DNA from: a virus
Virus record (IMG/VR): IMGVR_UViG_3300044996_000496
Coordinates: 1-64,000 of that record
Direction: 5' to 3' (one strand)
DNA: 64,000 nt
The notes beneath the pieces are model-generated. The model worked only from the letters and a program-made list of their open reading frames with translations, ran no database searches and was not told the origin of the DNA. This document shows, piece after piece, positions 18,517 to 40,102 of the stretch (position 1 is its first letter; each line of letters begins with the position of its first letter). The position numbers and the translations under genes are program-made.

Positions 18517-18530
18517 TATAATATATATAA

Positions 18531-18632
18531 TAACTCTAAGTAATAAACTCTATAGAGTTAACTCTTAAGAGATAACTCTGAAGAGGATCCTATCAAGATT
18601 AAGGTGAAGAACTCTAAATAAGAGGACTCTAA
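18531..18632. repeat. Iteron-like AACTCT repeats with 14-bp period; candidate origin or operator array
   Basis: AACTCT at 18532, 18546, 18560 and 18574, again at 18610, and GACTCT at 18625; units partly palindromic (CTCTnnAGAG); preceded by an AT-only run. Confidence 0.6.
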
Positions 18633-18646
18633 GTTAGGAGAGGGGT

Positions 18647-19132
18647 ATGATATTTAGATCTAGACTTTCTGGTTATTTATACTGGATTATGGGGCGTAGA
18701 ATTCCGGCGTGGTGTAGTGAGGTATCGGTTAATGATGATGCTGATACTATATCGTTTTCGTGTGATTATAATCAATGCAAAAATGAGTTTACGATTTCCG
18801 CAAGCGATGTTGATAAAGTTTTGCGGCTTCCGAATTTGTATACTATGAAGTGCATAAAGGTTATGAAGCTTGAAAAAGACTTTACTAATGGCGATATAGA
18901 ACCGTGGAGAATATTTACTAGTCCTTATCCGCTAAAAAGAGACGTTGTGAATCCGCAAGGTTCGATATGGTTATCGACGACTAGGTTGTTTAAGATAATT
19001 TATGTGTATGATTTTGAATATTTATCAGATATTAAGTATTCTTCTAGACCTGATATGTCATTATTTAATGGTTTATTGTGGGCTGGCCCAATTCCAGTTG
19101 GCGAGTTGCAAGAAGTTGTTTTTAACCGTTAG
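18647..19132 (+). CDS. Hypothetical protein
   Basis: 161 aa; GGAGAGGGG RBS. Confidence 0.65.
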   Translation: MIFRSRLSGYLYWIMGRRIPAWCSEVSVNDDADTISFSCDYNQCKNEFTISASDVDKVLRLPNLYTMKCIKVMKLEKDFTNGDIEPWRIFTSPYPLKRDVVNPQGSIWLSTTRLFKIIYVYDFEYLSDIKYSSRPDMSLFNGLLWAGPIPVGELQEVVFNR

Positions 19133-19666
19133 GTGAGGGGGTGCCGCTTGAGAATTTTGCTTCGTAAGCCAAGAATAAAGTATTATATTGGTAAAGATGC
19201 GTTGTCTCATGGAATACGTATGCGTGCTCCGCAAAAAGGAGATGTTGGTTACGATTTGTATAGCAGTAGAAGTGTTGATTTCTATCATTCAAGAGGTACT
19301 AGATACATTCCGGTCGTAGCGGTTCATACAGATATTTATGTAGCAATACCAAAAGGCTATGTTGGTAAGATATTTGATAGAAGCTCTGTGGCTTTAGACA
19401 AAAATCTTATTGTTTTGGCTGGAGTTATAGATCCTTCGTATCGCGGCGAATTGCTAATAGTTTTTGCTGACATTAGCTTTGGTCACAAGTGTACAACGAA
19501 TATAGAGTTACCCATAAGAACGATCCCAGCAAAGATAAAAATCGCTCAGATGATTGTTTTTGGCAGTGGTGGACTAATTACAAGTGAGCCTGAGATTGTA
19601 GACTCAATAGAGGACCTTGGGACGACAAATAGGGGCAATAAGGGGTTTGGATCTACCGGAAGGTAG
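19133..19666 (+). CDS. dut: Trimeric dUTPase
   Basis: GYDL, DRSS, GVIDPSYRGEL, IAQM and RGNKGFGSTG motifs. Confidence 0.92.
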   Translation: MRGCRLRILLRKPRIKYYIGKDALSHGIRMRAPQKGDVGYDLYSSRSVDFYHSRGTRYIPVVAVHTDIYVAIPKGYVGKIFDRSSVALDKNLIVLAGVIDPSYRGELLIVFADISFGHKCTTNIELPIRTIPAKIKIAQMIVFGSGGLITSEPEIVDSIEDLGTTNRGNKGFGSTGR

Positions 19667-19681
19667 TAGGAGGAAAATGTC

Positions 19682-20074
19682 ATGAGACGACTATTGATCG
19701 CTATGATTTTAATGTTAACACCATTAATGGCTTTCCCGGTGCAGTATGATAAAGATGGCGTGATTCCGTTTGGGGTTGATTTAACATGTAAAACTCCAGG
19801 TAGAACAATGACTGCATTTGAGGTAAAGCCGGTTATACAGCGTGTTTCTGGAGTTTCGGACACTCTGTCTGTGGCTCGTGTAACTGTAAGCAATACGGCA
19901 ACATCTGGTGATTACAGCATAACCATTGCAAGAGGGGAGAGGGTCGCAATAGCATCTAGAATAATTGAAACAGTTGGAGCTATTGAAATTGTTGGAGATT
20001 GGACTCAGTTTTCTGAGTTTGTAGAATATGTTGTGCCAAGTTCTGGCTGCTCGAAGCCGTGGTATAAGGGTTAA
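19682..20074 (+). CDS. Secreted hypothetical protein
   Basis: Signal peptide MRRLLIAMILMLTPLMA; AGGAGG RBS. Confidence 0.65.
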   Translation: MRRLLIAMILMLTPLMAFPVQYDKDGVIPFGVDLTCKTPGRTMTAFEVKPVIQRVSGVSDTLSVARVTVSNTATSGDYSITIARGERVAIASRIIETVGAIEIVGDWTQFSEFVEYVVPSSGCSKPWYKG

Positions 20075-20076
20075 TC

Positions 20077-20352
20077 ATGTCTAAGAAGTATTATAGGTTC
20101 AATTGGTCGAGAGTTGTTGAAGATTTTGATAATTTTCCATTTATTTATGATGTTTGTGGTGATTGTAGAAGTATAGTAATATCATCTGATGATAAAAATG
20201 CATTTATGAATGAGTTAATGGATAACATAAAAACATTCATAGAAGATGAGGCAATGGAAGAGCTTTCTGATGGTTCCGTAGGACGCAGTAATGGCGGGGC
20301 TTTAGATGATGACGATGATGATGCGAATGGTGAATTTGAATCATCATATTAG
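20077..20352 (+). CDS. Acidic hypothetical protein
   Basis: 91 aa with a poly-Asp tail. Confidence 0.6.
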   Translation: MSKKYYRFNWSRVVEDFDNFPFIYDVCGDCRSIVISSDDKNAFMNELMDNIKTFIEDEAMEELSDGSVGRSNGGALDDDDDDANGEFESSY

Positions 20353-20365
20353 GAGAGGTGATTAA

Positions 20366-21313
20366 ATGCGAGTTTCTGGTTTAATGTGTGTGTGGAATTG
20401 TGTTGAATTTGTCGAGCAAGCAATTTTAGGTATTATTGATAAAGTTGATGAACTTGTTGTAGTTGATGGTTCATGGAATCTGGACAACAAAAAAGGCTCC
20501 ACTGACGGCACAGAAGAAAAAATAAAGAAGCTTGCCAAACAGTTTGACAAAAAGATTTTTTTTCTGCAATATACTCCAACTCATCCAGAAGAATATCAGC
20601 ATTACTACAATGATGAGCACAAAGAGCATGTTCTTGGGCATTTTAACAAGCATAAAAATCCGTTCTACAAGCCAGGAAGGTTATCGCAACAACAGCTTGG
20701 AAGGGATTTTGGATTAAATTTTATACGAAGCAGATACTGCGACGACCCGGACGGTCATTGGCTACTTATTGTTGATAGTGATGAATTTTATCCAGAATGG
20801 CAGTTTGTAAATGGTAAGACATTTCATGATATTATAGAGGAATCAGTGGCCGACGCTACAAAAGTAGCCTTTCATGAGCCTACGCTACTGGCCATAGAAG
20901 CCATGAACTTTTACTTTGATAGTAGACATTTTGCTAATGAGAGATTTAACAGAATATTTAGACTAAGGCGCGATTCTTGGTTTGTTGATTCTAATACGAT
21001 AACTGGTTGTATGGATTATAGATATAATATACCAAAGATACAGTGCATGTTTTTTCATTATAGTTATATTGGTTCTGCTTTCAGAATGGAGTCGAAACTA
21101 GACCGTTGGGATGACTCAATTGTAAAGCCTTGGATAGAAAGGGTTTATAATGAGCCAAACTTTTATCAAAAGATGAGGAACAACGGAGGGGGCATCCATT
21201 TGTTAGGCAGCGTACACCCAGGTTACCGTCGTTACATGCTCATGGAGTACGGGGGCGAGCATCCAGCCCTGGCCTCTTTGGCCTTAGGAAAAATTGTAAA
21301 TGAAAATACATGA
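20366..21313 (+). CDS. Glycosyltransferase, GT-A fold (GT2-like)
   Basis: VDELVVVDG...GSTDGT, WLLIVDSDEF (DxD), FHYSY. Confidence 0.85.
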   Translation: MRVSGLMCVWNCVEFVEQAILGIIDKVDELVVVDGSWNLDNKKGSTDGTEEKIKKLAKQFDKKIFFLQYTPTHPEEYQHYYNDEHKEHVLGHFNKHKNPFYKPGRLSQQQLGRDFGLNFIRSRYCDDPDGHWLLIVDSDEFYPEWQFVNGKTFHDIIEESVADATKVAFHEPTLLAIEAMNFYFDSRHFANERFNRIFRLRRDSWFVDSNTITGCMDYRYNIPKIQCMFFHYSYIGSAFRMESKLDRWDDSIVKPWIERVYNEPNFYQKMRNNGGGIHLLGSVHPGYRRYMLMEYGGEHPALASLALGKIVNENT

Positions 21314-22163
21314 ATTACATAAAGGTTTTACAATAGGATTTCCAACTTGGAATAGATTAAATTATGTAAAAGCATGTGTTGAAAGTATTATTAAAAATAG
21401 TGCTTTTGAGCATGAGATTATTGTTCATATTAACGGTTGTACAGACGGAACTGTTGAGTGGGCAACCGATATGAAAAATAAGTATAGTTTTTTTGATTAT
21501 ACATATTCTGATAAAAATCTTGGTGTTGTTTTGGGCCACAATATTGCAATCAATAAAGGAACTAAAGATGTAGTATTAATTTCTGATAATGATATTTTAT
21601 TTTTTCCAGGTTGGGATATTGAGTTAGTAAATTTTGCTGAAAATAATGATGCTGATAAAAAATGGTGGATTAACTCTACTCCAATTGAGCCTCGCGGCGA
21701 CAGTCCATCATGTATTGCCCCTATGAATTACGGCACAACGATTGAAGAATTTAATTGGGATGCTGTTTTGCTTGATATAAATTATTTGCGTGGATTTAAA
21801 AAGTCAGTAAATTCCAATGTGTGCCCTGCGCTACTGTGGAGAGATAGTTTTGATAGCATTAACGGTCTAAATGAAGAGCTTGGGCTTGGGCTTGGCGCAG
21901 AGGATGATTTTGCTTTTAGAATGTGGAAGCATGTTGGTTGCAGAAATTTTGTTACAGTTCCGAATAGTCTAGTTTATCACTTTGCAGCAGGATTGAGCGG
22001 CGTGCAATCTTGGCCAGATAGGCAGAGTCACATGAATTTTCGTGATAATTATTTTATACAGAAATATGCTATGTGCAAAGAAGAGTTTATTTTTAATATT
22101 TTACGTAGAGGTAAACCTTGGACAAAAGATGGAATGGTTAGTTATGAGCAATATAAAAAATAG
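21300..22163 (+). CDS. Glycosyltransferase family 2
   Basis: PTWNR, EIIVHINGCTDGT, SDND, EDDF..R, VYHF. Confidence 0.9.
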   Translation: MKIHELHKGFTIGFPTWNRLNYVKACVESIIKNSAFEHEIIVHINGCTDGTVEWATDMKNKYSFFDYTYSDKNLGVVLGHNIAINKGTKDVVLISDNDILFFPGWDIELVNFAENNDADKKWWINSTPIEPRGDSPSCIAPMNYGTTIEEFNWDAVLLDINYLRGFKKSVNSNVCPALLWRDSFDSINGLNEELGLGLGAEDDFAFRMWKHVGCRNFVTVPNSLVYHFAAGLSGVQSWPDRQSHMNFRDNYFIQKYAMCKEEFIFNILRRGKPWTKDGMVSYEQYKK

Positions 22164-23307
22164 AATTTTATCTCTCGGTAATCAACCTATTGCTAATGGA
22201 TTTTTGGAAAAGCAGCATTATGCTACTGAATTTAGATACGATCTTTCTGTATATTTTGACAATAAAACTAAAATGTTAAAATTATGCAACACTGTTGCAA
22301 AAGAGCGTTTGTTTAATGCCGAATATGCATACAAAACTTCACACTCAAAAACAATGAGGGATCATTTTTATGATCTGGCTTTGATGTACAATTCTGCTAA
22401 AGTTATTGAAATAGGCAGTAACGACGGTGCGTTTATAGGTAATTTTGCTGGTGGTAAGAGCGTGGCGGTTGAGCCATGTGACAATATGGCAGAAATTACT
22501 AGAAAATTAGGAATATTGACATATAATAAATTTTGGGATATTGATTTAGCTGATGATATATTAACAGATTTTGGTAGTAAATTTGATTTGGTGTTTTCTG
22601 CAAATACAATGTGTCATATTGATGATTTAGATGGTGCATTTAGTGCCGTAAGTCACATTCTTGATGACGATGGAGTATTTATTTTTGAAGATCCGACTGC
22701 TTATAATATGATTTTAAATACTTCGTATGATCAAATATATGATGAGCATGTTTATGTGTTTAATTTGCATGGACTTTACGATATTTTGGCAAGAAATGGA
22801 TTGTATGTGTATGATGTTCTTGCATTGCCAAATATACACGGTGGTTCATTAAGGATAATATGCAAAAAACGTAAATATGATATTGATATACCGTGGTTCA
22901 GAAAAGAGGGACTTATTTTTGCAGATTCTGAAATTGGGTATCATATGTTTGCTCGTAATGTTTATGCATCTAGAGATAATCTTATATATTTATTGGAAAC
23001 ATTAAAAAATGATCACAAAAAAATTATAGCATATGGTGCGACATCTAAATCTACTGTTATATTTAATTTTTGTAATATTGGTGTTGATTTAATAGATTAT
23101 ATTATTGACACAACTCCAAGTAAAATAGGCAAGTTTTCTCCAGGTATGCATATTCCAATAGTAAATTTAGAAACTATACCAGATGATGTGGATTATGTAT
23201 TTTTATCTGCATGGAATTATGAAAAGGAAATATTATGTAAAGAGCGTGATTTTATTAAGAGAGGTGGAAAGTTTATTTCCCACGTTCCAATGATAAGGCT
23301 GATATGA
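22144..23307 (+). CDS. NDP-sugar C-methyltransferase (class I SAM)
   Basis: LGNQPIANGF, EIGSNDG, YDQIYDEH, HGGSLR, YGATSKS, KIGKFSPGMHIPI, LSAWNY. Confidence 0.9.
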   Translation: MSNIKNRILSLGNQPIANGFLEKQHYATEFRYDLSVYFDNKTKMLKLCNTVAKERLFNAEYAYKTSHSKTMRDHFYDLALMYNSAKVIEIGSNDGAFIGNFAGGKSVAVEPCDNMAEITRKLGILTYNKFWDIDLADDILTDFGSKFDLVFSANTMCHIDDLDGAFSAVSHILDDDGVFIFEDPTAYNMILNTSYDQIYDEHVYVFNLHGLYDILARNGLYVYDVLALPNIHGGSLRIICKKRKYDIDIPWFRKEGLIFADSEIGYHMFARNVYASRDNLIYLLETLKNDHKKIIAYGATSKSTVIFNFCNIGVDLIDYIIDTTPSKIGKFSPGMHIPIVNLETIPDDVDYVFLSAWNYEKEILCKERDFIKRGGKFISHVPMIRLI

Positions 23308-23735
23308 GGACTACTTGTACAAATACATCCATAGATGATGTTGTTGAATTTAATTTTAAAAATTTTCCAGATAATAGTGGAATACTTGTTCCAGTAGAAT
23401 TTAAATTAGATGTTCCGTTTTATGTTGAAAGAGTATTTTATGTTTATGACTTTGCTAAGGATTGTGTTAGGGCAAAGCATGCTCATATAGAATCATTGCA
23501 GATAATTGTTTGTTTATTTGGGGAAGTTGAACTTAAGGTTAATGATTGTACTAGAGAAAAAAAGATATTATTAAATAGACCATTTAAGGCTGTTTATATT
23601 CCAAGAATGATTTGGGTTGAGATGACATCCATGCAAAATAACTCAATAATTTTATGTTTAACAAATACTCATTATGATAAGCTTGATTATATTATAAATT
23701 ATGAGGAGTTTGTATCATGCAAAAGAAAGTACTGA
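23304..23735 (+). CDS. FdtA/QdtA-family cupin (dTDP-4-keto-6-deoxyhexose 3,4-ketoisomerase)
   Basis: PF.VERVFYVY, RAKHAH, IP.MIW, DYI.NYEEF. Confidence 0.85.
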   Translation: MRTTCTNTSIDDVVEFNFKNFPDNSGILVPVEFKLDVPFYVERVFYVYDFAKDCVRAKHAHIESLQIIVCLFGEVELKVNDCTREKKILLNRPFKAVYIPRMIWVEMTSMQNNSIILCLTNTHYDKLDYIINYEEFVSCKRKY

Positions 23736-24643
23736 TTACTGGCGGTCTTGGTCACATTGGTTCATATTTAATTCATAACTGGAATAAGAATGATCAAATT
23801 ATTGTAATTGATAATCTGTTAACGCAAAGATATTGTTCTTTGTTTTATTTGCCAGAAAATGTAAGATTTATTGAAAAAGATGTAAAACATATTAGTGATG
23901 AAGATTTAAACGGAGTTACACATATTATTCATTTGGCCGCTATAGTTGATGCTGCAAATAGTTTTTCCGATCCGTCTACAATAATGAGTGTTAACTGTGA
24001 GTATACGATAAAACTTTTAGAACTTTCAGAAAAATGCAAATCACTTGAATTTTTTATTTTTCCGTCAACAACTAGTGTTTACGGTTCAGGCACACCAAAA
24101 CAGATCTTTACCGAAGATAATAGTACACTTCTTAACCCGCAGAGTCCGTATGCAGAGTCCAAAGTACTGGCAGAGCGTGCTATAATGAAATCTAGTGTTC
24201 CTTTTCTAATATTAAGATTTGGCACAATATTTGGGCGTAGTATAGGAATGAGGTTTCAGACAGCGGTCAACAAATTATGTTTTCAGGCGGCATTTAATCA
24301 AAAATTAACAGTATGGAAAAAAAATATAGAATACTTTAGACCGTATTTAGGACTACATGATTGCTATAATCTTATCAATGGGTTGGTTTCTGGTAGGCAG
24401 TGCTTGAAATCTAGAAGTACATATAATGTTATAAGTTGCAATGAAAAACTTTCTAATATATTGAATATTATATGTTTCTATGTCGGTAAATTAGCTATTG
24501 ATTATGTTGATTCTCCGCTATTGAATCAAAATAATTATTTTGTTTCTGATGAAAAGATAAGAGAGTTTGGGTTTATTCCAGGCGACATGTTGGAGAATGG
24601 AATTTTTGAAACACTGTCTTATTTAGGTGTTAATAAAGTATGA
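23717..24643 (+). CDS. NAD-dependent nucleotide-sugar epimerase/dehydratase (extended SDR)
   Basis: ITGGLGHIG, IHLAA, SVYG, SPYAESK. Confidence 0.9.
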   Translation: MQKKVLITGGLGHIGSYLIHNWNKNDQIIVIDNLLTQRYCSLFYLPENVRFIEKDVKHISDEDLNGVTHIIHLAAIVDAANSFSDPSTIMSVNCEYTIKLLELSEKCKSLEFFIFPSTTSVYGSGTPKQIFTEDNSTLLNPQSPYAESKVLAERAIMKSSVPFLILRFGTIFGRSIGMRFQTAVNKLCFQAAFNQKLTVWKKNIEYFRPYLGLHDCYNLINGLVSGRQCLKSRSTYNVISCNEKLSNILNIICFYVGKLAIDYVDSPLLNQNNYFVSDEKIREFGFIPGDMLENGIFETLSYLGVNKV

Positions 24644-25302
24644 AAAATATCGTATTTTTTGGTGGTTCTGGACAAGCAATTGTAATGCGCGGTATTGCTG
24701 AAGATTGTGGATTTGGGATTATTGCTATTTTGGATGAGTTTTTAAGTACAAAAAGAGTTTTTGATGATATACCATTTTTTTGTGGACCTTCGTGTATTGA
24801 TGAGTTTGTGGGTTCTGGAGAACTTACCAAAAACGGAGATATTTATTGTGCTGTTACGATAGGCAATCCAAATGGATTTAGACGTATTGAATTATACAAT
24901 AAACTTAAAAATGAATTTGGTTTCTTGCATACTAGTTTAATAGATAAAACAGCGATCTTGCGTTCACCATATTTGATTGGTGCAGGGGTTCAGATTCATC
25001 CTGGTGTTGTTGTTATGCCTAGATCTATGGTTGGGTCTTTTGTTATATTAAATACAAAATCACTGGTAGAGCATGAATGTATTTTAGAGGATGGAGTTGA
25101 GCTTGGCCCAGGGGCAATATTGTGCGGGTGTGTTACGGTGGGGAAGTGTAGTTGGATAGGTGCCGGGGCAGTTGTCAGACAGCGTATTACAATAGGCGAT
25201 AATTCTATTGTTGGAGCCGGGGCCGTGGTCGTTAAGGACGTCCCGAGTAATGTTATTGTTGTTGGTAATCCTGCTAGAATATTGAAGTATAACAAACAAT
25301 AG
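24640..25302 (+). CDS. NeuD/PglD-family sugar acetyltransferase (hexapeptide repeat)
   Basis: GGSGQA, VTIGNP, VEHEC, VGAGAVVVKDVP..VVGNPAR. Confidence 0.9.
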   Translation: MKNIVFFGGSGQAIVMRGIAEDCGFGIIAILDEFLSTKRVFDDIPFFCGPSCIDEFVGSGELTKNGDIYCAVTIGNPNGFRRIELYNKLKNEFGFLHTSLIDKTAILRSPYLIGAGVQIHPGVVVMPRSMVGSFVILNTKSLVEHECILEDGVELGPGAILCGCVTVGKCSWIGAGAVVRQRITIGDNSIVGAGAVVVKDVPSNVIVVGNPARILKYNKQ

Positions 25303-25314
25303 AGGGATAGTATT

Positions 25315-25992
25315 ATGACAAAAAATGAATTTTGTGCTATTTTCAATTCTTTTGACACAACGAAAGTTACGTGTTCTGAGTGTTCGCATTATTCATTATG
25401 TTATTATAAACATTTTTCAGAATTATTAAATTCACAAAAGGTAATAAAAATTCTAGAATTCGGAGTTGATAAGGGGCAATCTCTGCTTATGTGGAATAGA
25501 TTATTCGCCAATTCAGAAGTGGTTGGTGTTGATAACAAAGAAGATAGGGTTGCGAATGCTGGTTTAATTTGTGCAGATATGGATATTACTGTTGTTTGTG
25601 GGGATCAGTCTAATATTTCGTTTTTGTCTGATTTGATAGATAATTTTGGGAAATTTGATATAATTATTGATGACGCTAGTCACATAAGTACTCAACAAAT
25701 AACATGTTTTGAGTATATGTTTGAGCACGGTCTTCTCGATTCTGGGCTTTATGTTATAGAAGATCTTGGCACATCTTATTGGTCGGACTGGTGTGACGGG
25801 GAAACGACAATGATAAAATATTTGCAAAAACTGGTTGACTCTGTGAATCATAGATTTTGGAAGCATGGGCGAATAAATGTAAAGCAATTGCCAGGAACTC
25901 GCGTTGACGGAGCATCCTATCTTGAGGAAAATGTAACCAGTATATGTTTTCACAGAGGAATATGTTTTGTTCAAAAAGGTAATAATTTTTAA
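25315..25992 (+). CDS. Class I SAM methyltransferase (MycE/TylE-like sugar O-methyltransferase)
   Basis: ILEFGV..GQSL..W, GDQS, FDIIIDDASH, YVIEDLGTSYW. Confidence 0.8.
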   Translation: MTKNEFCAIFNSFDTTKVTCSECSHYSLCYYKHFSELLNSQKVIKILEFGVDKGQSLLMWNRLFANSEVVGVDNKEDRVANAGLICADMDITVVCGDQSNISFLSDLIDNFGKFDIIIDDASHISTQQITCFEYMFEHGLLDSGLYVIEDLGTSYWSDWCDGETTMIKYLQKLVDSVNHRFWKHGRINVKQLPGTRVDGASYLEENVTSICFHRGICFVQKGNNF

Positions 25993-26003
25993 TTTTTTAT
26001 GGA

Positions 26004-27116
26004 GTGGTTTTTATGTTTAATTTAATGGATTTTGCCGCTGGTCCAAGTATGACGAGCTTAGAAGAATCGTATGTTTTAGACGCCATGAAGAACTGGTACG
26101 GCAAGGACGCATATAAATATTGTGAAATGTTCCAGAAGCAGTTTGCGGATTATCATGGCAGAAAGTACGGTGTTATGACTACTAATTGCACATCGGCAAT
26201 ACACTTAGCTTTGATAGCTGCCGGGGTTCGTCCAGGTGATGAGGTTATTGTTCCAGAGCTTACTTGGACTGCCACTGCAGAGCCTATTGTCTGGCTTGGT
26301 GCTAAACCAGTTTTTTGTGATGTTGAGTATAGATCTTGGTGTATTAGTCCACGTTCTATTATAAATAAAATAACAAGAAAAACTAAAGCAATAATAGCAG
26401 TTGATCTTTATGGCAATATGCCGGATTTTAATGAAATTGTTGATATTTGTAATGATTATCATTTATCTTTAATAGAAGATTCTGCCGAGGCGCTGGGATC
26501 TAAATATATGGGTAGATTGGCTGGTACATTTGGAGAATCGTCTGTTTTTAGTTTTCATAGAACGAAAACGTTGGTGTGCGGAGAAGGTGGAATATTGTTG
26601 ACTGATGATAAAAAAATATATGATTGTGCTATGTATTTTCGAGATCATTGTAGAGATAAAAATAGAATGTACTATAATTTAAATATTGGATATAAATACA
26701 TGCCTTTTAATGTTCAGGCGGCTATTGCATATGGGCAATTGCAGAGAATAGATGAGTTAATTTCTATTAAGAGAAGACATCTTGATTTGTATAGGACTAG
26801 ATTGGAGAAAATTGGAATGTTAAATATAGATAATGATAATGTGTATAATGGTGCGTGGATAACTTGTTTTATGCCTGAAAAGCGTCTTTATAAAGAGACT
26901 GTTGCTGAGACGGCAGCTAAATTTAATATACCAATAAGACCATTTTATTATCCGTTGTCTTCTTTGCCGGCTTATGGTGAATTTGCTAATAAATGTAAGT
27001 TAAATGAATCGTCATACTATTATAGTCAATATGGAATCAATCTTCCTGGTGCAATGATTTTAAGTGATGATATGATTATGTATATTTGTGATATTTTGGA
27101 GAAATGTTATGATTAA
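26004..27116 (+). CDS. DegT/DnrJ/EryC1/StrS PLP aminotransferase (perosamine-synthase-like)
   Basis: TSAIHLAL, GDEVIVP, IEDSAEALG, FSFHRTKTLVCGEGG. Confidence 0.9.
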   Translation: MVFMFNLMDFAAGPSMTSLEESYVLDAMKNWYGKDAYKYCEMFQKQFADYHGRKYGVMTTNCTSAIHLALIAAGVRPGDEVIVPELTWTATAEPIVWLGAKPVFCDVEYRSWCISPRSIINKITRKTKAIIAVDLYGNMPDFNEIVDICNDYHLSLIEDSAEALGSKYMGRLAGTFGESSVFSFHRTKTLVCGEGGILLTDDKKIYDCAMYFRDHCRDKNRMYYNLNIGYKYMPFNVQAAIAYGQLQRIDELISIKRRHLDLYRTRLEKIGMLNIDNDNVYNGAWITCFMPEKRLYKETVAETAAKFNIPIRPFYYPLSSLPAYGEFANKCKLNESSYYYSQYGINLPGAMILSDDMIMYICDILEKCYD

Positions 27117-28068
27117 GTTATTTAATATTGGAAATTTTGAGATAAATACGTCTAGGTTTGATAATTTGTTGCATGGAAAAGTTGTTTTTGAGTTTGAGCG
27201 TAAATTTTCCGAGTATGTTGGCGCGAAGTATGCGTGTTCTTTTTCAAGTGCGAGTATGGCAATTTTTGCCATTTTTAAGTTATTTGATGATTTGCGTAGT
27301 ATTATAAATATACCAACAATGATACCACATGTTGTTGTTAACTCAATATATAACGCAGGATACAAAATCAATTTTGTTGATAATAACCAGTGGGTGGGCA
27401 ATTGCTACTTATTGCATACATTTCGAGATGGGGTTAAGATATTTGATTCTGCTCAACAGGTTGAACGTTTTCAATATAAAAATATGTGTAATGACAATGA
27501 TATTATGATATTTAGTTTTTATCCAACTAAACCTATTGGTAGTTGCGATGGAGGGATGGTTGTTTCAAATGATATGGATGTAATTAAAAGATTAAGAGAA
27601 TTTTCAATTAATGGAACTGCATTTAGTACAAACAGTTGGGATAGGGTAATTACCATGTGTGGCGGCTGGAAAGTGTATATGAACTCAGTGCAGGCATACA
27701 TGGCCAGTTGTAATTTAGATAATTTTGAGAATAAAATTGAAAAGTTAAATCAAATTAGAAAAATATATAATAAATTTATTGGAGAGATTTCTGTTACAAA
27801 TAATAGTAATCATTTATATAGAATAAGAGTAAGCAATAATAAAGAATTTTGTGCAAAAATGCTTAAAGCTGGAATTATGTGTGGAATACACTATGAAACA
27901 CTTCATAATCATGACAAGTATAGAGATATCTGCGTCAATGATGTTGGTTGTGATTTTGTTAAATCTATATTTGATTCCAAAACAGTGGCAAGCATACCAT
28001 TTCACGATAATATGAGTTATAGCGAAGCAGAGTATGTCGTTAAAAGCGCTATTGCATTAAGTAATTGA
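27109..28068 (+). CDS. Second, divergent DegT-family aminotransferase
   Basis: FDSAQ, FSFYPTKPIGSCDGG, GIHY, SIPFH. Confidence 0.85.
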   Translation: MIKLFNIGNFEINTSRFDNLLHGKVVFEFERKFSEYVGAKYACSFSSASMAIFAIFKLFDDLRSIINIPTMIPHVVVNSIYNAGYKINFVDNNQWVGNCYLLHTFRDGVKIFDSAQQVERFQYKNMCNDNDIMIFSFYPTKPIGSCDGGMVVSNDMDVIKRLREFSINGTAFSTNSWDRVITMCGGWKVYMNSVQAYMASCNLDNFENKIEKLNQIRKIYNKFIGEISVTNNSNHLYRIRVSNNKEFCAKMLKAGIMCGIHYETLHNHDKYRDICVNDVGCDFVKSIFDSKTVASIPFHDNMSYSEAEYVVKSAIALSN

Positions 28069-28932
28069 TTTTGATATTTCAATTATTTTTTTTGCCCAGT
28101 TGTTTCTGCTATATTTTTGAACCCCAATAAATCCATTATATCTTATTCTATTTCTTTCATCTGTATTTTTTAAGTAATATTGTATTTTTTCATTTAGATC
28201 ACTTATGGAGTCGAATATGACCAAGTGTTCTTTATCAATAAATATGTCAGATCTTCCGAGCCAATCATTTGTTAGTAGAAATCCTCCAGCGGCCAATATT
28301 TTGTATACCCTATCCGACATACAGTTAGCTGTACACATATTGAGATTGATTTTACTTCTGCTAACAACGTTTGCATGCTCCTTGGCAAATGCGTTCTGGA
28401 ATACCTGTATTTTTGTTGTTACAGAATTTATAAGATCTGCTCTGTAGCCGTATATACTCCCAATAAATGAAACATCTATGTCCTGTTCAGTGCAATGTCT
28501 TGGCCTGTCAATGTCCTGGTCGAAGCCCTCTGGAACTAAAAAGGTATTTTTGTTGAGCCTGTATGCATCTTGATATACTTGTGGTTTGTCACAGCATACA
28601 AATGAGCAGTAGAGGGCTTTTGTTCTAGCCTCGGCGTCCCAATTTGGTGTTGCATCCATAAACCATAGGCATGTTTTTGAATATTTATTGCACTCATGAA
28701 TTACTCGTATGTTTACAAGATTTCCTTTGCTGAAGATAACTAAGTCTGGAAGTTCGGTTTTGCATACTTCAATTATTTCTAGGTCTCTTTTTTCCCTGCT
28801 GCCAAGCTCGTCTGCGCGTACCCTAAAATTGTATTTTATTACCTCTGCTCCGCTGTGTTCTAGTCCCCTGGCCTGCGAATTGTTCGTTGACTTGTTAAGT
28901 TCGTCAAATACTGCAATAAATAATATTTTCAT
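28057..28932 (-). CDS. CgeB-like glycosyltransferase (GT-B)
   Basis: DVSFIGS..GYR, SKINLN, SDRVYKILAAGGFLLT, KIQYYL. Confidence 0.85.
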   Translation of the reverse strand: MKILFIAVFDELNKSTNNSQARGLEHSGAEVIKYNFRVRADELGSREKRDLEIIEVCKTELPDLVIFSKGNLVNIRVIHECNKYSKTCLWFMDATPNWDAEARTKALYCSFVCCDKPQVYQDAYRLNKNTFLVPEGFDQDIDRPRHCTEQDIDVSFIGSIYGYRADLINSVTTKIQVFQNAFAKEHANVVSRSKINLNMCTANCMSDRVYKILAAGGFLLTNDWLGRSDIFIDKEHLVIFDSISDLNEKIQYYLKNTDERNRIRYNGFIGVQKYSRNNWAKKIIEISKSIT

Positions 28933-29297
28933 TTATTTTGGTATCCTTCATAAAATTTAATATCTTCTTCGGATATTTGTTTGTGATGATTTTTATCTAT
29001 ATGGGCATCAAGATAAACATTTATTGCTTTTAATAATTTTGGGCGTTTTATTCTGCATATAAAGTCTATTTTTCTTTTTATTTTTTTGATTTTATATGCA
29101 TCACTAGTTGCCGATACCTCGTCTTCCATTTTCCAGAGTCTTATGTGCAATATTATTAGTTTTTCTAGCATTTCAGCAAAATTATCACTAAACTCAAGAT
29201 CAAGATCGGACAGTGGCTCTTTGTAAAATCTTTGTGCAATTTCTTGTAATATTAAATCTGCTGCTTGTTCTATGTTTGGTTGTTTTCCGTTTGACAT
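28929..29297 (-). CDS. DUF4254-like helical protein
   Basis: FAEMLEKLIILHIRLWKMED...R..L..AIN pattern seen in glycan loci. Confidence 0.55.
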   Translation of the reverse strand: MSNGKQPNIEQAADLILQEIAQRFYKEPLSDLDLEFSDNFAEMLEKLIILHIRLWKMEDEVSATSDAYKIKKIKRKIDFICRIKRPKLLKAINVYLDAHIDKNHHKQISEEDIKFYEGYQNK

Positions 29298-29298
29298 T

Positions 29299-30231
29299 TT
29301 ATTGATTTTCCAAGATTTCGTTGATTTTTGAGTATACACTATTAGGCTGCGGCTGTCTGCCGATTTCTTGAACTATTTTGATTTTTACATTGAAAGGGTT
29401 CCAGTCTCTGGTGTATCTGTTCAGATACTCTTCTATTCCGATAACAAGAACTCGCGGACATGAACACAGGGCGGCTAGATTGATTGGCCCGCTCGGACAT
29501 CCGATCATACATTTTGCATTGTTTAACATGTATATTTCATTTTCTAGATTAATTCCTCGCATGTCTTCTATCCCAGGTAATGATAGTGACCCATGTATAT
29601 CTCCAATGGTGCATATTGATAGATTTTTGTGTTTTGATTTTTTTATTATATCAATTAGAGATAGCCAATTACCAACGTGCCAATTTTTGTTGGCGGAATT
29701 TCCTTTTGTAGTTGATCGTGCGTGTATTATTATATCAAATGTCTTTTGATTGTCCATTTTTATATTATATGGTATGAATGATTGATTAATTTCGTAAAAT
29801 TGATTTTGGGGATTATTTTGATTAGACCAAAACATTGAATTATAGTTAATAACCTCTTCATTCGGAGGTATCCATATATACTCTTTTTTGTCGGTGCTGC
29901 AGAATGATAAAACGTAGTATTGTCCGCAGTTTAAGGGTGTATTTAGTACAGTAAACTTGGTTTTTATTGGTATATGGGAATTTATTGTGTCTAAAACACT
30001 TTGGTGCATGTGGTCAAATCCCCACATGCGAGACATTGATGTGTCTCCGTACATATATGTTTGATATGGTATAAATTTTTCAGCGAAGTCTTTGTATAAT
30101 ATTTTATGGTTTGGATTATCAACTACTGTTATTTCATATCCAATTTTTGATAGGTATCTAAGGTGGGCCTGCCAGCAGAATAGCTTCCACCCAAACTCTC
30201 CGACAAATGGGCCAGCTATTATTTTTTGCAT
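29299..30231 (-). CDS. GT9-like (heptosyltransferase-fold) glycosyltransferase
   Basis: GEFGW, IIHAR...KNW...W, DMRGINL...IGCPSGPINLAALC. Confidence 0.7.
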   Translation of the reverse strand: MQKIIAGPFVGEFGWKLFCWQAHLRYLSKIGYEITVVDNPNHKILYKDFAEKFIPYQTYMYGDTSMSRMWGFDHMHQSVLDTINSHIPIKTKFTVLNTPLNCGQYYVLSFCSTDKKEYIWIPPNEEVINYNSMFWSNQNNPQNQFYEINQSFIPYNIKMDNQKTFDIIIHARSTTKGNSANKNWHVGNWLSLIDIIKKSKHKNLSICTIGDIHGSLSLPGIEDMRGINLENEIYMLNNAKCMIGCPSGPINLAALCSCPRVLVIGIEEYLNRYTRDWNPFNVKIKIVQEIGRQPQPNSVYSKINEILENQ

Positions 30232-30232
30232 G

Positions 30233-30802
30233 TTAAATTATTTTGTCTATAAACCCGAGCTTGAGTGCTCTTACTGGTGATAAATAAATATCATTGCCCT
30301 CTCTGAGCATTTTGTCTAATGTATTATAGTGCAGTTTGGTGTTGCTTGATATGATTTTGCAGTATATTTTGTGTATTCTGTTGAACTCTTTAAGCATTTC
30401 CTCCATTGCACGCAGGTTCGAGTCTGATATTTCAGTTTCTTTTATTCCATGCATCATTATTGTGCTTTGCTTAAACGCATGTCTGTTTCCGATTGTTCCG
30501 GCAACAAGCGGTAGGACAGCTGCCGATGCTGCTATCCCGAGACAATATGTATTTATTTGACATTTTGCATTTTTTATTAGTTCATATATTCCTATTGAGT
30601 AGTATACATCCCCACCGTCGGATGATATAATTATATCTATTGGATCTGCTTTTTTATCCATAAAATCGAAATCATAAAATTGTTTTGATATTTCCGAGCA
30701 CGTTGATGAGTCTATTATTTTGCCAAAAAATATTTCTCGTTTTTTACGTGGTAATTTTTTTGTCACATACCACCCCCCTTTATTACATAGATACATTATC
30801 AA
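30233..30802 (-). CDS. clpP: ClpP-family protease subunit
   Basis: ISSDGGDV, GIAASAA (catalytic Ser), IMMH, D.YLSP..A.KLGFIDKI. Confidence 0.88.
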   Translation of the reverse strand: MIMYLCNKGGWYVTKKLPRKKREIFFGKIIDSSTCSEISKQFYDFDFMDKKADPIDIIISSDGGDVYYSIGIYELIKNAKCQINTYCLGIAASAAVLPLVAGTIGNRHAFKQSTIMMHGIKETEISDSNLRAMEEMLKEFNRIHKIYCKIISSNTKLHYNTLDKMLREGNDIYLSPVRALKLGFIDKII

Positions 30803-30855
30803 TTGCGTAATTTGTTATTATTCACTATATTATGTTGTGAACCGTTGGAGGGGGT

Positions 30856-31260
30856 ATGGATAAAAAATGTTCTTGCTGTGGGCATGAGATAAAAAAAATA
30901 CACAAATGTGATCTTTGTGGGGAGGATGTGTGTAATAATTGTCTTATTGAGTGGACAGTTGCGCCTGGGTACATAAACAATAATAACTGTTTTGAGTTTA
31001 CGTGTGTATTTGATGCCACCGCAAATGAATATAACAGTGGGGTCGATGGGATGGGGTCTGTCTTCGGTTTGTGCCACATGTGTTATGCGGCCAATCAGGA
31101 TTTGTTTGTAGGATTTTGGAGAGATGCAACTAAAACAATAGTTAGTATATTGAATAAATTTATTGCAGATAATAAAGAGAAGATGAAAGAAGAAATTTTT
31201 AGGAGGGATGAGAGATTAAGTCAGATGGAGAGAAGTCTAAAGAGGGCGGCAGAGGATTAA
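30856..31260 (+). CDS. Zn-finger-like hypothetical protein
   Basis: Multiple CxxC motifs; GGAGGGGG RBS. Confidence 0.7.
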   Translation: MDKKCSCCGHEIKKIHKCDLCGEDVCNNCLIEWTVAPGYINNNNCFEFTCVFDATANEYNSGVDGMGSVFGLCHMCYAANQDLFVGFWRDATKTIVSILNKFIADNKEKMKEEIFRRDERLSQMERSLKRAAED

Positions 31261-31307
31261 TTGAAAAAGATAAAATACCAAGCAATATCGGGAAAAAACT
31301 GGGTTGC

Positions 31308-31580
31308 TTGGCAGATGTTTTACTATGTGATGAAGTAATTGATTTTGTTTCACAGGATTCATTTGAAAAGTTGAAATCTAAAGTAATTGCAAATCTTAGA
31401 AAACTGTATATTGATAACAAAATAGATTTGTCTAATGTTGACGATGATTTAGGCAGCGTTTCAGTTGCCGACAGAGAAAAAAGAATATTAAAAAACAAAA
31501 CTAAAACAGAGCTTTTGAGGAAGGGAAATGCAGGGAAACGAGTTAACACTGGACAGAGGGGCACAGCGAGGATTTATTAG
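31308..31580 (+). CDS. Hypothetical protein
   Basis: 90-aa ORF filling the gap; start uncertain. Confidence 0.5.
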   Translation: MADVLLCDEVIDFVSQDSFEKLKSKVIANLRKLYIDNKIDLSNVDDDLGSVSVADREKRILKNKTKTELLRKGNAGKRVNTGQRGTARIY

Positions 31581-31998
31581 AGATGAGATGATTAGATTCC
31601 AAAATTTGCTTGGGTCAATTACTGAGTCTGTATATGAGGCAGAAGTTGCATACAAAAGACAAGAATTGTTTTGCAAAATTTTGGAGAGGGCGTTATTGGT
31701 TGAGGTGTTTGAGTCCGAAGAGGCGAAGTCTAAAAATTGGTCAGTAGATATGAAAAAGGCCAATGCGTTTCTTGCATCAATATCTAGGGAAAAACTTCTC
31801 AGTCGCCATGGAATAGATAAAATAATCCCGCCAGACAGGGCAACCTTTTCATTGTCAGAGGAAAAAGCGGTAGAGTTAGAGCTTGAGGCTTTGTGGAATC
31901 GTCTTAGAAACCGCATGGCGGCTATAAATGTTACAATAGATGTAGCTAGGAGCGGACTTTCATACGATAAGTCGGAGGCTGAAAACTATGCCAAGTAA
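31528..31998 (+). CDS. Helical hypothetical protein (possibly UvsY-like)
   Basis: All-helical 156 aa; C-terminal RS.LS..K.E pattern; family assignment weak. Confidence 0.55.
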   Translation: MQGNELTLDRGAQRGFIRDEMIRFQNLLGSITESVYEAEVAYKRQELFCKILERALLVEVFESEEAKSKNWSVDMKKANAFLASISREKLLSRHGIDKIIPPDRATFSLSEEKAVELELEALWNRLRNRMAAINVTIDVARSGLSYDKSEAENYAK

Positions 31999-32305
31999 TA
32001 GGGGTGAGTTGAATTTATCCGCATATGAGGAGATTATTACAGAGGCTCGTAAGCTGGCTGAGGAAAAGTATAAGGGTTATGGTCCTGATAATATAGGGGC
32101 TTTTGCTGATTTTGGATGTTTAGTCAGGGCAAATGATAAAATACAAAGAATGAAAACAATTTATTTGCGTCGCTTTAATTCAGGAGTATCTGAAGATAAA
32201 GCGTTGGTTGGGGCCGTTCCAGACGAAAAGATAGATGATGATATTAAGGATGCTATTAATTATTTAGTTTATATGTTGATGTGTCGGAGGGGACAGTGGA
32301 TGTAA
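31988..32305 (+). CDS. DUF1599 / nucleotide-modification-associated domain protein
   Basis: K...YG..NI...G.LVR.NDK..R...DE..DD...D..NY. Confidence 0.75.
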   Translation: MPSNRGELNLSAYEEIITEARKLAEEKYKGYGPDNIGAFADFGCLVRANDKIQRMKTIYLRRFNSGVSEDKALVGAVPDEKIDDDIKDAINYLVYMLMCRRGQWM

Positions 32306-33573: not shown

Positions 33574-33701
33574 TGATATTGTTGATGGCGATTCTGAGTT
33601 TATTGATGCCATAAGTGGGCCATGCATCAATCGTATAAAACGAAAAATGAAAAAGATAAAAAAGAAAAAATTATGGCCGGGGAGGAAGCAAATTATTGAC
33701 A

Positions 33702-40089: not shown

Positions 40090-40102
40090 GGAGTGGTTTG
40101 AC

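Follow-up and report, generated by a model that had tools for sequence, protein, structure and literature searches.

Organization and phage residence of the cluster

The cluster studied here (20366–30231) lies in a window of 64,000 nt from the record of an uncultured lake-water phage; the full record comprises 87,578 bp, is linear by its IMG/VR class, and is estimated by CheckV to be 61% complete. Gene calling and profile searches revealed nine plus-strand genes converging on a minus-strand operon, which encodes a CgeB-type glycosyltransferase (GT), a weakly DUF4254-like protein, a GT9-fold GT, and a ClpP-family protease. The latter gene (30233–30802, minus strand; PF00574, E 1.5e-28) is the first large gene of this operon and is separated from the GT9-like gene by a 1-nt gap, so the cluster extends past 30231. 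Genes for ThyX and dUTPase are found upstream, and those for terminase, portal and a capsid-like protein, downstream. Gene junctions, as follows from the coordinates, are overlaps or gaps of 11–14 nt.

The cluster is phage-borne and intact. A composition scan shows even GC content (0.30–0.37) with skew consistent with the coding strand, and the cluster has the same composition as the rest of the phage. One contig of 14,859 nt covers 18019–32877 across both borders with no differences, but its run, X1, is possibly the one from which the window itself was derived; contigs from three more lake-water runs cover 30 of 30 bins with even depth and extend across the left border, and identical copies of cluster proteins are present on 4–7 contigs. 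All 12 cluster genes are open, with matches covering most or all of the structures and profiles hit. Exact look-up of seven cluster proteins yielded 90%-identity clusters with no other members, except for the CgeB-type GT (one more member), and no relative found elsewhere exceeds 52% identity.

The presence of only such families as are typical of bacterial surface-glycan clusters, in a linear and incomplete record, could also be expected of a recent, decaying host O-antigen fragment or a phage/bacterial chimeric assembly, but this explanation has been largely refuted and retains almost no probability, given the open genes, near full-span matches, tightly coupled junctions, phage-like composition, even tiling by other runs, and nearly solitary proteins, as well as the identity of the C-methyltransferase to its best cellular relative (45%, compared to up to 50% in viral contigs).

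The sugar-tailoring operon

Seven enzymes are encoded by the plus-strand operon at 22144–28068: a C-methyltransferase, an FdtA-type isomerase, a short-chain dehydrogenase/reductase (SDR), an acetyltransferase, an O-methyltransferase, and two DegT-family aminotransferases. The first (22144–23307; Methyltransf_14, E 6e-38) is an NDP-sugar 3-C-methyltransferase of the TcaB9/KijD1/TylC3 type, whose best PDB match is 5t64, “Sugar 3-C-methyl transferase” (240 bits), followed by TcaB9 (3ndi, 228 bits) and mycarose 3-C-methyltransferase (4rv9, 172 bits); its longest open reading frame begins with GTG at 22042, with ATG at 22144 as the probable start codon. The next gene (23304–23735, plus strand) encodes a cupin, the NDP-4-keto-6-deoxyhexose 3,4-ketoisomerase of the FdtA/QdtA type (PF05523, 126 bits; QdtA 4zu7, 94 bits; FdtA 2pa7, 76 bits), with the His-x-His motif aligned and retained.

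The extended SDR (23717–24643, plus strand; Epimerase, E 2e-26; best PDB match 6vo6, 85 bits) keeps the YAESK motif and, judging from its sequence, probably acts at C4 as a dehydrogenase or ketoreductase. We also considered a 4,6-dehydratase function and rejected it: TIGR01181 scores 70.7–71.3 bits against the cut-off of 365, and the STTSVYG strand has no Asp-Glu pair. The sugar N-acetyltransferase (24640–25302, plus strand) belongs to the NeuD/PglD/VioB/PerB family (TIGR03570, 166.6 bits, above the cut-off of 160.8), with matches to perosamine N-acetyltransferase (4ea7, 90 bits), VioB (7txp, 86 bits) and PglD (3bss, 78 bits). It is followed by a TylE-type sugar O-methyltransferase consisting of the catalytic domain only (25315–25992, plus strand; PDB 3ssm, 73 bits; 8ia9, “demethylmacrocin O-methyltransferase”, 59 bits over query positions 29–224; methyltransferase phrog_21658, 74.5 bits).

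The full-length DegT-family sugar aminotransferase (26004–27116, plus strand; PF01041, 306.7 bits) has the lysine in FSFHRTK and is closest to C4 aminotransferases, that is, perosamine synthase, LegC and PseC (LegC family, 249 bits; PseC, 204 bits; PDB 7b0m, 215 bits; perosamine synthetase 3bn1, 200 bits). The short-form DegT protein (27088–28068, plus strand; PF01041, 111 bits, profile positions 144–358) keeps the lysine in FSFYPTKPIG. A search with it returned 705 clusters at E ≤ 1e-10, and among the best 120 all but two are 303–321 aa long and none is more than 52% identical, which further argues against a host fragment. The short form is the usual partner of the C-methyltransferase and FdtA in viral contigs, being present in 53 of 80 viral loci. 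Most gene calls of the original prediction were reproduced by these searches, the weak ones being noted below.

Glycosyltransferases and neighboring genes

The two genes preceding the operon had been described as GT-A enzymes. This holds for the GT2 protein of 287 aa (21300–22163, plus strand; PF00535, E 6.3e-16), which has the GT-A fold and no hydrophobic or transmembrane segment and is found as an identical protein on six contigs. The call is weak for the 315-aa orphan encoded at 20366–21313 (plus strand): PF00535 (E 0.022) and PF13704 (E 0.041) are both below cut-off, a word-index search for relatives returned the protein alone, and the single-sequence AF2 model has pLDDT 30.8. Its Atlas model neighbors are GT2-named clusters (TM 0.62–0.68). 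Taken together with the PF00535 score, they make it a probable, if weakly supported, GT-A/GT2-like glycosyltransferase.

On the minus strand, the CgeB-type (Glyco_trans_1_2) GT (28057–28932; PF13524, E 3.3e-19), as originally called, is encoded by a gene that shares 12 nt with the short DegT gene where their 3′ ends meet; it has no sequence match in PDB, and its homologue accompanies the GT9-like gene in 47 of 80 viral loci. The small helical protein (28929–29339, minus strand) resembles DUF4254 only weakly (PF14063, E 0.033, 14.5 bits against the cut-off of 27), so that this earlier assignment is tentative, and its homologues are found in just two of the 80 loci. The gene at 29299–30231 (minus strand) has no Pfam match of its own, but the GT9 assignment stands, based on the family alignment, AF2 model and Foldseek: 39 of 58 aligned relatives match PF01075, the model (pLDDT 89.9) best fits WaaC (E 7.3e-10), with further matches to GT9 protein 3tov, TibC (E 9e-7) and WaaF, and the Atlas score to viral clusters labelled GT9 is 0.97. 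The family is large (880 representatives at E ≤ 1e-3), short, and mostly viral. Overall, the cluster indeed encodes NDP-sugar tailoring enzymes and soluble GTs.

Further GT genes occur beyond the cluster, at 46124–50354 and 78774–79493 of the record. Three of these genes lie directly behind the major-capsid-like gene (45147–46064), and four GT domains are inside the head-neck operon. Immediately after the capsid-like gene we find a 798-aa two-domain GT with no transmembrane segment (46124–48520, plus strand; phrog_2170, E 2e-35), consisting of a GT4 domain (PF00534, E 6e-15) and a weakly GT9-like C-terminal half (PF01075, E 2e-4, just below cut-off; PDB 3tov, E 1e-5). A GT2 gene is located within the head-neck module (49617–50354, plus strand; PF00535, E 3.5e-14), and one GT2 sits behind the giant fibre genes. 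Bacillus phage Stills, a distant relative, has small genes and no GT directly after its capsid-like gene. In 22 proteins of the virion module, 47 [VIA]SG tripeptides were counted, compared to 18.6 ± 4.6 in shuffles; most of the excess is found in two giant fibre proteins, where repeat architecture may account for it. The phage also codes for a secreted GH12 protein (with a signal-like N-terminus) and polysaccharide-lyase-like proteins, suggesting that host polysaccharide matters to it.

Export and activation genes

The original prediction named no Wzx, Wzy, GtrA/B, multi-TM or RmlA-like protein in the window, and in the entire 87,578-bp record no activation, flippase, polymerase or ligase gene was found either. 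None of the 113 called ORFs has three or more hydrophobic segments, and an unfiltered six-frame scan yields only three short ORFs of this kind, all antisense inside the tape-measure gene. Nucleotidyltransferases (PF00483, PF12804, PF01467), RmlA, RmlB, Wzx and GtrA were not found in this 61% complete record, nor do Wzx and GtrA occur in three 95–100% complete phage records with related modules. In two of the latter, G004 and G049, the sole ORF of at least 300 aa with at least three hydrophobic segments encodes a 1991-aa protein. Hence, either the acceptor is cytoplasmic, or host export is hijacked.

Related modules in other genomes

The sugar module is colinear in many IMG/VR contigs, including T4-like ones, and often ends with RmlA–RmlB, which points to dTDP chemistry; judging from these sequences, dTDP is the most likely nucleotide carrier. 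RmlA is present in 14 of 48 related viral records, and a strong RmlB adjoins it in four of the five records examined (the fifth being G000). The suggested supply of NDP-sugar by the host is plausible, yet it is based on an incomplete record.

The pair of CgeB-type and GT9-like genes is common in uncultured T4-like phages. On the contrary, among 50,697 GenBank phage records the GT9-like GT has no match and the CgeB-type GT, one partial match, while the C-methyltransferase has matches in only seven, at 21–29% identity. Related modules are also carried by T4-like contigs that have Gp23 capsid genes, and in the five large T4-like contigs with the GT pair, tens of kilobases separate it from the capsid gene. 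Very diverse bacteria, too, have the set of C-methyltransferase, DegT, FdtA and SDR in surface-glycan-like loci.

Comparison with known systems

Mycobacteriophage GTs and an O-methyltransferase are reported to modify capsid and tail tube (PMC11600133, PMC12363180), and virion glycosylation is described for Che8, Corndog and Myrna (Freeman et al., 2023, as cited in PMC11600133, PMC12363180, PMC12619734). According to these sources, soluble phage GTs (in cluster O, together with the O-methyltransferase) act on the phage’s own virion proteins in the cytoplasm with no export machinery. The lake phage, which comes from an aquatic sample and is known here from its genes, differs by the seven-enzyme nucleotide-sugar operon and the GT9-fold and CgeB-type GTs.

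Megavirinae are reported to have clusters of 6–33 genes and rare amino sugars on virion fibrils, with virus-coded bacterial-type pathways and GTs glycosylating the virion surface independently of the host (PMC10117803). Unlike these viruses of eukaryotes, whose genomes are megabase-scale, the virus studied here is a tailed phage with a genome of at least about 88 kb and a module family suggestive of dTDP. To our knowledge, giant-virus enzymes include neither a C-methyltransferase nor an FdtA-type isomerase.

With the bacterial dTDP-Fuc3NAc/Qui3NAc pathways (FdtA–C, QdtA–C) the operon shares the isomerase His pair, a DegT aminotransferase and a left-handed beta-helix N-acetyltransferase, and with C-3-methylation of antibiotic sugars, the TcaB9/KijD1-type enzyme (228–240 bits to TcaB9 and 5t64). 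However, the acetyltransferase groups with PerB/VioB/PglD and not with QdtC (50 bits), there is no 2,3-dehydratase, the C-methyltransferase has no zinc-ribbon cysteines, and the aminotransferase partner is the short form, with relatives of approximately 305–320 aa. The T4-like cyanophages S-SCSM2R and P-SSM2 have cell-wall/LPS gene clusters (PMC12801897), and “O-antigen nucleotide sugar” auxiliary genes are known in viromes (PMC12911398). Here, similarly, lytic phages have many GTs and NDP-sugar enzymes with no transporters, but these two reports list epimerases, RmlB/C/D and Kds genes.

Possible acceptors of the predicted phage-made sugar

The best reading, to which we assign a probability of approximately 0.45, is a self-contained cytoplasmic toolkit glycosylating the phage’s own virion proteins. 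The operon would take an NDP-4-keto-6-deoxyhexose, most likely dTDP-linked and made either by host RmlA/RmlB or by phage genes missing from the incomplete record, and convert it into one or two rare sugars with amino, N-acetyl, C-methyl and probably O-methyl groups; we know of no named sugar with this combination. The keto group would be moved from C4 to C3 by the FdtA isomerase, C3 aminated by the short DegT, C4 re-oxidised or reduced by the SDR, C3 methylated by the TcaB9/KijD1-type enzyme, C4 aminated by the perosamine-synthase-like DegT, and the product N-acetylated by the PerB/VioB-like enzyme and O-methylated by the TylE-like one, possibly after transfer. This order employs every enzyme, but it and the role of the SDR are guesses. 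At least seven soluble GTs might then assemble the glycan on an acceptor accessible from the cytoplasm, namely, the GT-A-like orphan, GT2, CgeB-type and GT9-fold proteins of the cluster, the GT4–GT9 fusion and GT2 behind the capsid gene, and the GT2 behind the fibre genes. The putative acceptors would be proteins of the capsid, tail or fibres, modified before or during assembly, in parallel with mycobacteriophages and giant viruses. GT genes behind the capsid-like and fibre genes add weight to this option, as do the arrangement in phage Stills and the [VIA]SG excess. On the other hand, the sugar operon adjoins nucleotide-metabolism genes outside the structural module, and GT9 enzymes classically work on the LPS core.

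The main rival, possible but less probable, is that phage GTs add the rare sugar, on the cytoplasmic side, to lipid-linked intermediates of the host (lipid A-borne LPS core, O-antigen or capsule units on Und-PP, or precursors of teichoic acid or S-layer glycan), and host MsbA, Wzx or ABC transporters and ligases carry the altered glycan out. GT2, GT4 and GT9 are standard in such pathways, soluble GTs being ordinary in O-antigen, capsule and LPS-core synthesis on lipid carriers, so that solubility does not separate the two readings. This rival also agrees with the fit of the GT9-like model to heptosyltransferase WaaC, the bacterial surface-glycan-like loci, the distance of modules from the capsid gene in T4-like contigs, the GH12 and polysaccharide-lyase-like proteins, and the views published for sugar genes of cyanophage S-SCSM2R (PMC12801897) and for the O-antigen nucleotide-sugar auxiliary genes that Patescibacteriota phages carry (PMC12911398). 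It is weakened by the lack of an initiating transferase, flippase, polymerase or ligase in this record and three near-complete related ones, the frequent selectivity of host flippases and ligases, and the GTs of the head-neck operon and behind the fibre genes, which are hard to explain. Moreover, seroconversion in its classic form belongs to temperate phages, and a non-exhaustive scan of parts of the record revealed neither an integrase nor a lysogeny module.

DNA hypermodification, with GTs placing the sugar on hydroxymethylated pyrimidines of phage DNA to evade restriction, is quite improbable. The operon directly follows ThyX and dUTPase, and virus GTs adding diverse glycans to DNA are reported (Pyle et al., 2024, cited in PMC12619734). 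Still, the suggestion of DNA as an acceptor gained nothing from our analysis: a ThyA-type hydroxymethylase was not found in the 87.6-kb record, no GT matched a DNA-glucosyltransferase family in the Pfam and PHROGs scans, and the GT placement in the structural operon is left unexplained. About seven GTs and a seven-enzyme tailoring pathway also far exceed the needs of the DNA systems known to us.

Returning to glycosylation of virion proteins, the intact rare-sugar operon and many GTs, with no export genes, suggest that the phage’s own particles are probably sugar-coated. If host glycans are edited instead, the cell surface would be altered during infection, which could, e.g., block superinfection or keep progeny off debris.

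Gene Content of the Plus-Strand Operon

The plus-strand genes at 20366–28068 overlap or lie 11–14 nt apart. Family scans and PDB matches demonstrate that the rare-sugar and glycosyltransferase (GT) cluster of the original prediction is real and that its gene calls are good: most of them were reproduced, the weak ones being the DUF4254-like gene, the GT9-like protein (310 aa), which has no Pfam match of its own, and the first gene of the operon. The latter (20366–21313, +) is an orphan with weak GT-A signals only; a word-index homology search returned no match besides itself, and its single-sequence AF2 model, with pLDDT 30.8, is too poor to be of use. It is followed by a GT2 gene (21300–22163, +), identified by the family scan.

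The sugar 3-C-methyltransferase (22144–23307, +) is similar over its full length to 5t64, which we take to be KijD1 (240 bits, query positions 3–381 on chain positions 25–415), and matches TcaB9 with 228 bits; it combines a class I SAM domain with the C-terminal domain (PF08484, Methyltransf_14, E 6e-38; PF13489, E 1e-13). C-3-methyltransferases of the TcaB9/KijD1 kind act beside a 4-keto group, and the N-terminal zinc ribbon of NDP-sugar 3-C-methyltransferases is structural. The four-cysteine zinc ribbon of TcaB9 and 5t64 is missing from the phage protein: profile PF08421 scores 30.6 bits against the cut-off of 31.3, over profile positions 10–62 only, the site reading R-C-H-A-C-G in 5t64 is D-N-K-T-K-M in the phage, and no CxxC occurs upstream in the ORF (22042–22260). 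Taken at its longest, the ORF shares 122 nt with the GT2 gene before it; ATG 22144 is a likelier start codon.

Next comes a FdtA/QdtA-type ketoisomerase (23304–23735, +; PF05523, 126 bits), a cupin where H-A-H is aligned to H-S-H of QdtA; this His-x-His pair is catalytic in FdtA/QdtA. For the short-chain dehydrogenase/reductase (SDR; 23717–24643, +) the closest match among solved structures is 6vo6 (85 bits), presumably the C4-dehydrogenase Cj1427. This gene had been predicted to encode an epimerase or dehydratase of the SDR type, and the SDR assignment holds, while the role of the missing 4,6-dehydratase had to be rejected, as the protein scores 70.7–71.3 bits with TIGR01181 (RmlB; cut-off 365.1) and its active-site strand, S-T-T-S-V-Y-G, lacks the Asp-Glu of the Thr-Asp-Glu (TDE) motif found in the active site of 4,6-dehydratases. 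What Cj1427 does is set out in PMC10680097.

The N-acetyltransferase (24640–25302, +) belongs to the NeuD/PglB/VioB family, with 166.6 bits against 160.8 for TIGR03570 over the full length (query 4–213, profile 2–202 of 202), and its best PDB matches are PerB, a perosamine N-acetyltransferase (4ea7), and VioB (7txp). The sugar O-methyltransferase (25315–25992, +) matches 3ssm, in all likelihood MycE, and the demethylmacrocin O-methyltransferase 8ia9, in line with its earlier description as MycE-like. The operon ends with two DegT-type aminotransferases: a full-length one (26004–27116, +; PF01041, 306.7 bits), closest to perosamine synthase and LegC/PseC, with the PLP-binding lysine in FSFHRTK, and a short one (27088–28068, +; PF01041, 111.4 bits), with the PLP lysine in FSFYPTK, aligned to solved enzymes. 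The predicted C-methyltransferase (its zinc ribbon apart), FdtA/QdtA isomerase, hexapeptide acetyltransferase and both DegT enzymes are all upheld by family-specific features.

The Minus-Strand Operon

The minus-strand set constitutes one operon of a 92-aa ORF, ClpP, the GT9-like gene (29299–30231), a weakly DUF4254-like gene and a Glyco_trans_1_2 (CgeB-type) GT (28057–28932). It converges on the plus-strand operon, the last genes sharing 12 nt at their 3′ termini (28057–28068), and no terminator-like hairpin is seen between the two; promoter and terminator scans of 17000–33000 gave results near the shuffle expectation.

The GT9-like protein has 880 representative relatives at E≤1e-3, and PF01075 is matched by 39 of the 58 relatives aligned. 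Its AF2 model (pLDDT 89.9) is most similar in Foldseek to WaaC, 3tov (GT9 from Veillonella), TibC and WaaF, with TM 0.46–0.59 and 11–14% identity; the family scans gave no sign of a heptose pathway. The DUF4254 assignment of the original prediction is retained as a resemblance only, the match to PF14063 (14.5 bits, E 0.033, profile 3–64 of 144) falling below the cut-off of 27 bits. The CgeB-type GT had no match in the PDB sequence search.

The ClpP-family protease (30233–30802, −) shares its operon with the minus-strand GTs, away from the head module. We considered it as a prohead protease, which is unlikely since it lies on the opposite strand and outside the head module. Separately, a 597-aa protein (42596–44389) has a weak match to the GPO scaffold protease.

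Proposed Sugar Pathway

The enzyme families are observed, and the order of reactions and the product are our reading of the sequence. If the isomerase, the two aminotransferases, the C4-type N-acetyltransferase, the C-3-methyltransferase and the SDR are strung into one path, the product would be an N-acetylated, C-methyl-branched amino or diamino dideoxyhexose. The enzymes might instead make up two shorter paths, one leading to a 3-amino sugar and the other to a 4-acetamido sugar. The O-methyltransferase, of the TylE type, may act after sugar transfer; macrolide relatives of this enzyme methylate post-transfer. The starting 4-keto sugar would be supplied by the host or by unrecovered phage genes.

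The Cluster Resides in a Phage Genome

The record (IMGVR_UViG_3300044996_000496) has 87,578 bp, is of the linear class, and has CheckV completeness of 61%. The ORF listing and family scans reveal the backbone of a long-tailed phage: terminase, portal, a major-capsid-like protein (45147–46064), a 1930-aa tape-measure protein, two giant proteins (2014 and 2813 aa) that carry PA14 and FN3 domains, two sigma factors, RNA ligase, a secreted GH12, ThyX and dUTPase, and, past the window end, GT2, a GuaB-like protein, primase, class II RNR and RuvC. The capsid-like protein is only 22–25% identical to proteins of Slash-, Stills- and Basilisk-like Bacillus siphophages; the word-pattern method found no close relatives of the terminase, the capsid-like protein or the 798-aa GT in IMG/VR, and GenBank phages gave no megablast match to the cluster as a whole. 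Scans for tRNAs found none in the window or in the rest of the record, and so a hint at the host is lacking.

The original prediction would fail if the cluster were a recent, decaying host O-antigen fragment or a chimeric assembly. Composition, contig tiling and identities all speak against this and make it very unlikely. The GC content of the cluster (0.30–0.37) and its strand-consistent skews are the same as in the remaining window. Ten cluster and flanking proteins were looked up, and seven of them have letter-for-letter copies on 4–7 contigs drawn from several collections; the longest of these contigs measures 88,273 bp. The 90%-identity clusters of these seven comprise one or two members each. 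The stretch is present in seven lake-water metagenome runs, four of them possibly its source; in the three others all 30 bins over 16000–34000 are covered with even depth, and their contigs bridge the left border (18301–20509 and 18174–21015). A 14,859-nt contig from a run that may itself be the source extends over 18019–32877 with zero differences. The C-methyltransferase has its nearest cellular relative among 185,579 species genomes at 45% identity, with relatives scattered over very diverse phyla, and relatives in viral contigs at up to 50%; for the short DegT, 705 relatives were found at E≤1e-10, with no identity above 52% among the best 120 of them.

A joint of 23353 to 27128, seen in one contig with a 20-letter side only, and loose ends at 23359, 29086, 30429 and 33660, where contigs match some 20–30 letters, were taken as chance matches and not as cassette variants.

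Several further features of the backbone were recorded. The 88,273-bp contig is close in length to the record itself, and DNA polymerase and helicase were not found in the families scanned; either the CheckV estimate is right and assemblies break at one place, or the phage depends on host replication. Of the two sigma-70-family factors, the one at 13400–14038 (+) has region 2 only, and the one at 16030–16644 (−) is ECF-like with regions 2 and 4; both may govern when the sugar and structural operons are expressed. The GH12 (10622–11437) and two weakly polysaccharide-lyase-like proteins (40028–40948 and 40957–41739) carry hydrophobic, signal-peptide-like N-termini, and the phage thus seems, from these gene predictions, to act on host polysaccharide from outside, too.

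The Module in Other Viruses and in Cells

In IMG/VR, 99 relatives of the C-methyltransferase were confirmed, and 80 of their loci were retained. A tblastn search of all phage proteins against these loci demonstrated that only sugar genes are held in common: FdtA in 66 loci, the short DegT in 53, the SDR in 32, the O-methyltransferase in 26, the long DegT in 21, and the N-acetyltransferase in 8. These genes are colinear on one strand, and in locus L009 the gene order is the same as in this phage, except for the O-methyltransferase. RmlA is present in 14 of 48 records with C-methyltransferase loci, two loci being left out of this count; in four related records (G001, G004, G011, G028) a strong RmlB (316–398 bits) adjoins it, the pair standing directly behind the short DegT where mapped, which points to a module family running on dTDP-glucose. 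T4-type Gp23 capsid genes are present in G011 and G028.

In 80 cellular C-methyltransferase loci the partners are ordinary DegT (65), SDR (62) and FdtA (21), and the short DegT type yields only cross-hits with identity ≤28%. Viral modules seem to favor this short form; we do not call it virus-specific, since some relatives have NCBI sources.

The GT9-like protein has 180 confirmed IMG/VR relatives (80 loci kept). A CgeB-type GT homologue is found in 47 of these 80, directly adjoining the GT9-like gene in 26 of the 40 loci listed, and 31 of the 80 have DegT-like genes no more than 10 kb away; Gp23 is present in every one of the five large contigs tested. A search of 50,697 GenBank phage records returned one partial match for the CgeB-type GT, seven matches at 21–29% identity for the C-methyltransferase and none for the GT9-like protein.

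Some viral arrays are much larger than the cluster studied here: in the 68-kb IMG/VR contig L004 about 25 genes on one strand (1–21164) form a 21-kb glycan-type array around the C-methyltransferase module, ending in RmlA-RmlB. In a T4-like contig, G050, the Gp23 match (90975–91775) crosses two TAG codons within a 659-aa open frame, which could reflect TAG recoding.

Absence of Activation and Export Genes

The absence of Wzx, GtrA, multi-TM and RmlA-like genes, noted in the original prediction for the window, extends to the whole 87,578-bp record. None of its 113 called ORFs has three or more hydrophobic segments, and an unfiltered six-frame scan adds only three short ORFs of this kind, which lie antisense within the tape-measure gene. 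The record was negative for NTP_transferase, NTP_transf_3 and CTP_transf_like, for which all 14 control genomes were positive. The flippase search proposed originally, run on the rest of the genome, likewise returned neither of the two families sought, Wzx-type (PF01943) and GtrA (PF04138), in this record of about 61% completeness. Because of this incompleteness the same was asked of related records, and GtrA and Wzx are absent from G004 (95% complete), G049 and G052 (both 100%) and G011 (78%); in G004 and G049 a 1991-aa protein is the sole product of an ORF of at least 300 aa to have three or more such segments. The missing export genes thus characterise phages that carry modules of this type and do not result from truncation.

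Acceptor of the Glycan

Glycosylation of virion proteins is our main reading, to which we assign a probability of about 0.45. The link to the virion in these data is one of gene arrangement: immediately behind the capsid-like gene there are a 798-aa GT4 and GT9-like fusion, a 369-aa gene without an assigned family and a GT2, and another GT2 follows the fibre genes. In Stills, a distantly related Bacillus phage, small genes directly follow the capsid-like gene. The [VIA]SG tripeptide is enriched in virion-module proteins (47 observed vs. 18.6 ± 4.6 shuffled); the remaining proteome has 15 vs. 12.4 shuffled.

That the cluster edits host glycans is the main alternative, somewhat less likely than virion glycosylation. 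The same soluble GT families assemble host surface glycans on lipid carriers, modules in T4-like contigs lie far from the capsid gene, and published readings of such genes (PMC12801897, PMC12911398) usually favor host-surface remodelling. Modification of phage DNA, for which a ThyA-type enzyme was sought in the record and not found, is highly improbable.

Virion glycosylation has precedents in mycobacteriophages (PMC11600133, PMC12363180, PMC12619734) and Megavirinae (PMC10117803). In the mycobacteriophage kind, phage GTs place glycans on capsid and tail proteins.

Implications

The kind of system is known from glycosylation genes of phages and giant viruses and from auxiliary sugar genes of viromes. 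Several traits set this one apart: its operon for C-methyl amino sugars includes a short-form aminotransferase, a CgeB-type GT is paired with one of the GT9 fold, further GTs are inserted after the capsid gene, and export genes are lacking. In the literature searched, where subscription journals are little covered, we found neither a description of this module in phages nor a paper on a phage 3-C-methyltransferase.

We tentatively propose, as a conjecture that is rather unlikely to hold, that numerous uncultured tailed phages of aquatic origin, both T4-like and of the unrelated long-tailed lineage studied here, share a mobile self-sufficient toolkit, consisting of a dTDP-sugar operon with a zinc-less C-methyltransferase, FdtA and the short DegT and of the CgeB-type/GT9-fold pair, which makes an undescribed C-methyl-branched amino or diamino sugar as a glycan coat of the virion. 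The GT pair is widespread in uncultured T4-like phages and near-absent from GenBank phage records. The zinc-less C-3-methyltransferase, the non-dehydratase SDR and the short-form sugar aminotransferase with its hundreds of uncharacterised relatives offer testable enzymology, and, as the genes are short and the proteins soluble, the pathway could be reconstituted in vitro with no need for a phage culture.

Phage particles are usually regarded as bare protein, and glycosylated virions have been documented so far for a few mycobacteriophages and giant viruses. If true, our proposal would mean that particle glycosylation reaches beyond actinobacteriophages to environmental phages in general and that it includes rare sugars made by the phage. 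Were the toolkit to coat the particle, a shield of phage-synthesised rare sugars would be a common trait of environmental phages, with a bearing on adsorption, stability, grazing and host recognition, and it would change the reading of “auxiliary metabolic” sugar genes in viromes, today almost always interpreted as host-surface remodelling.
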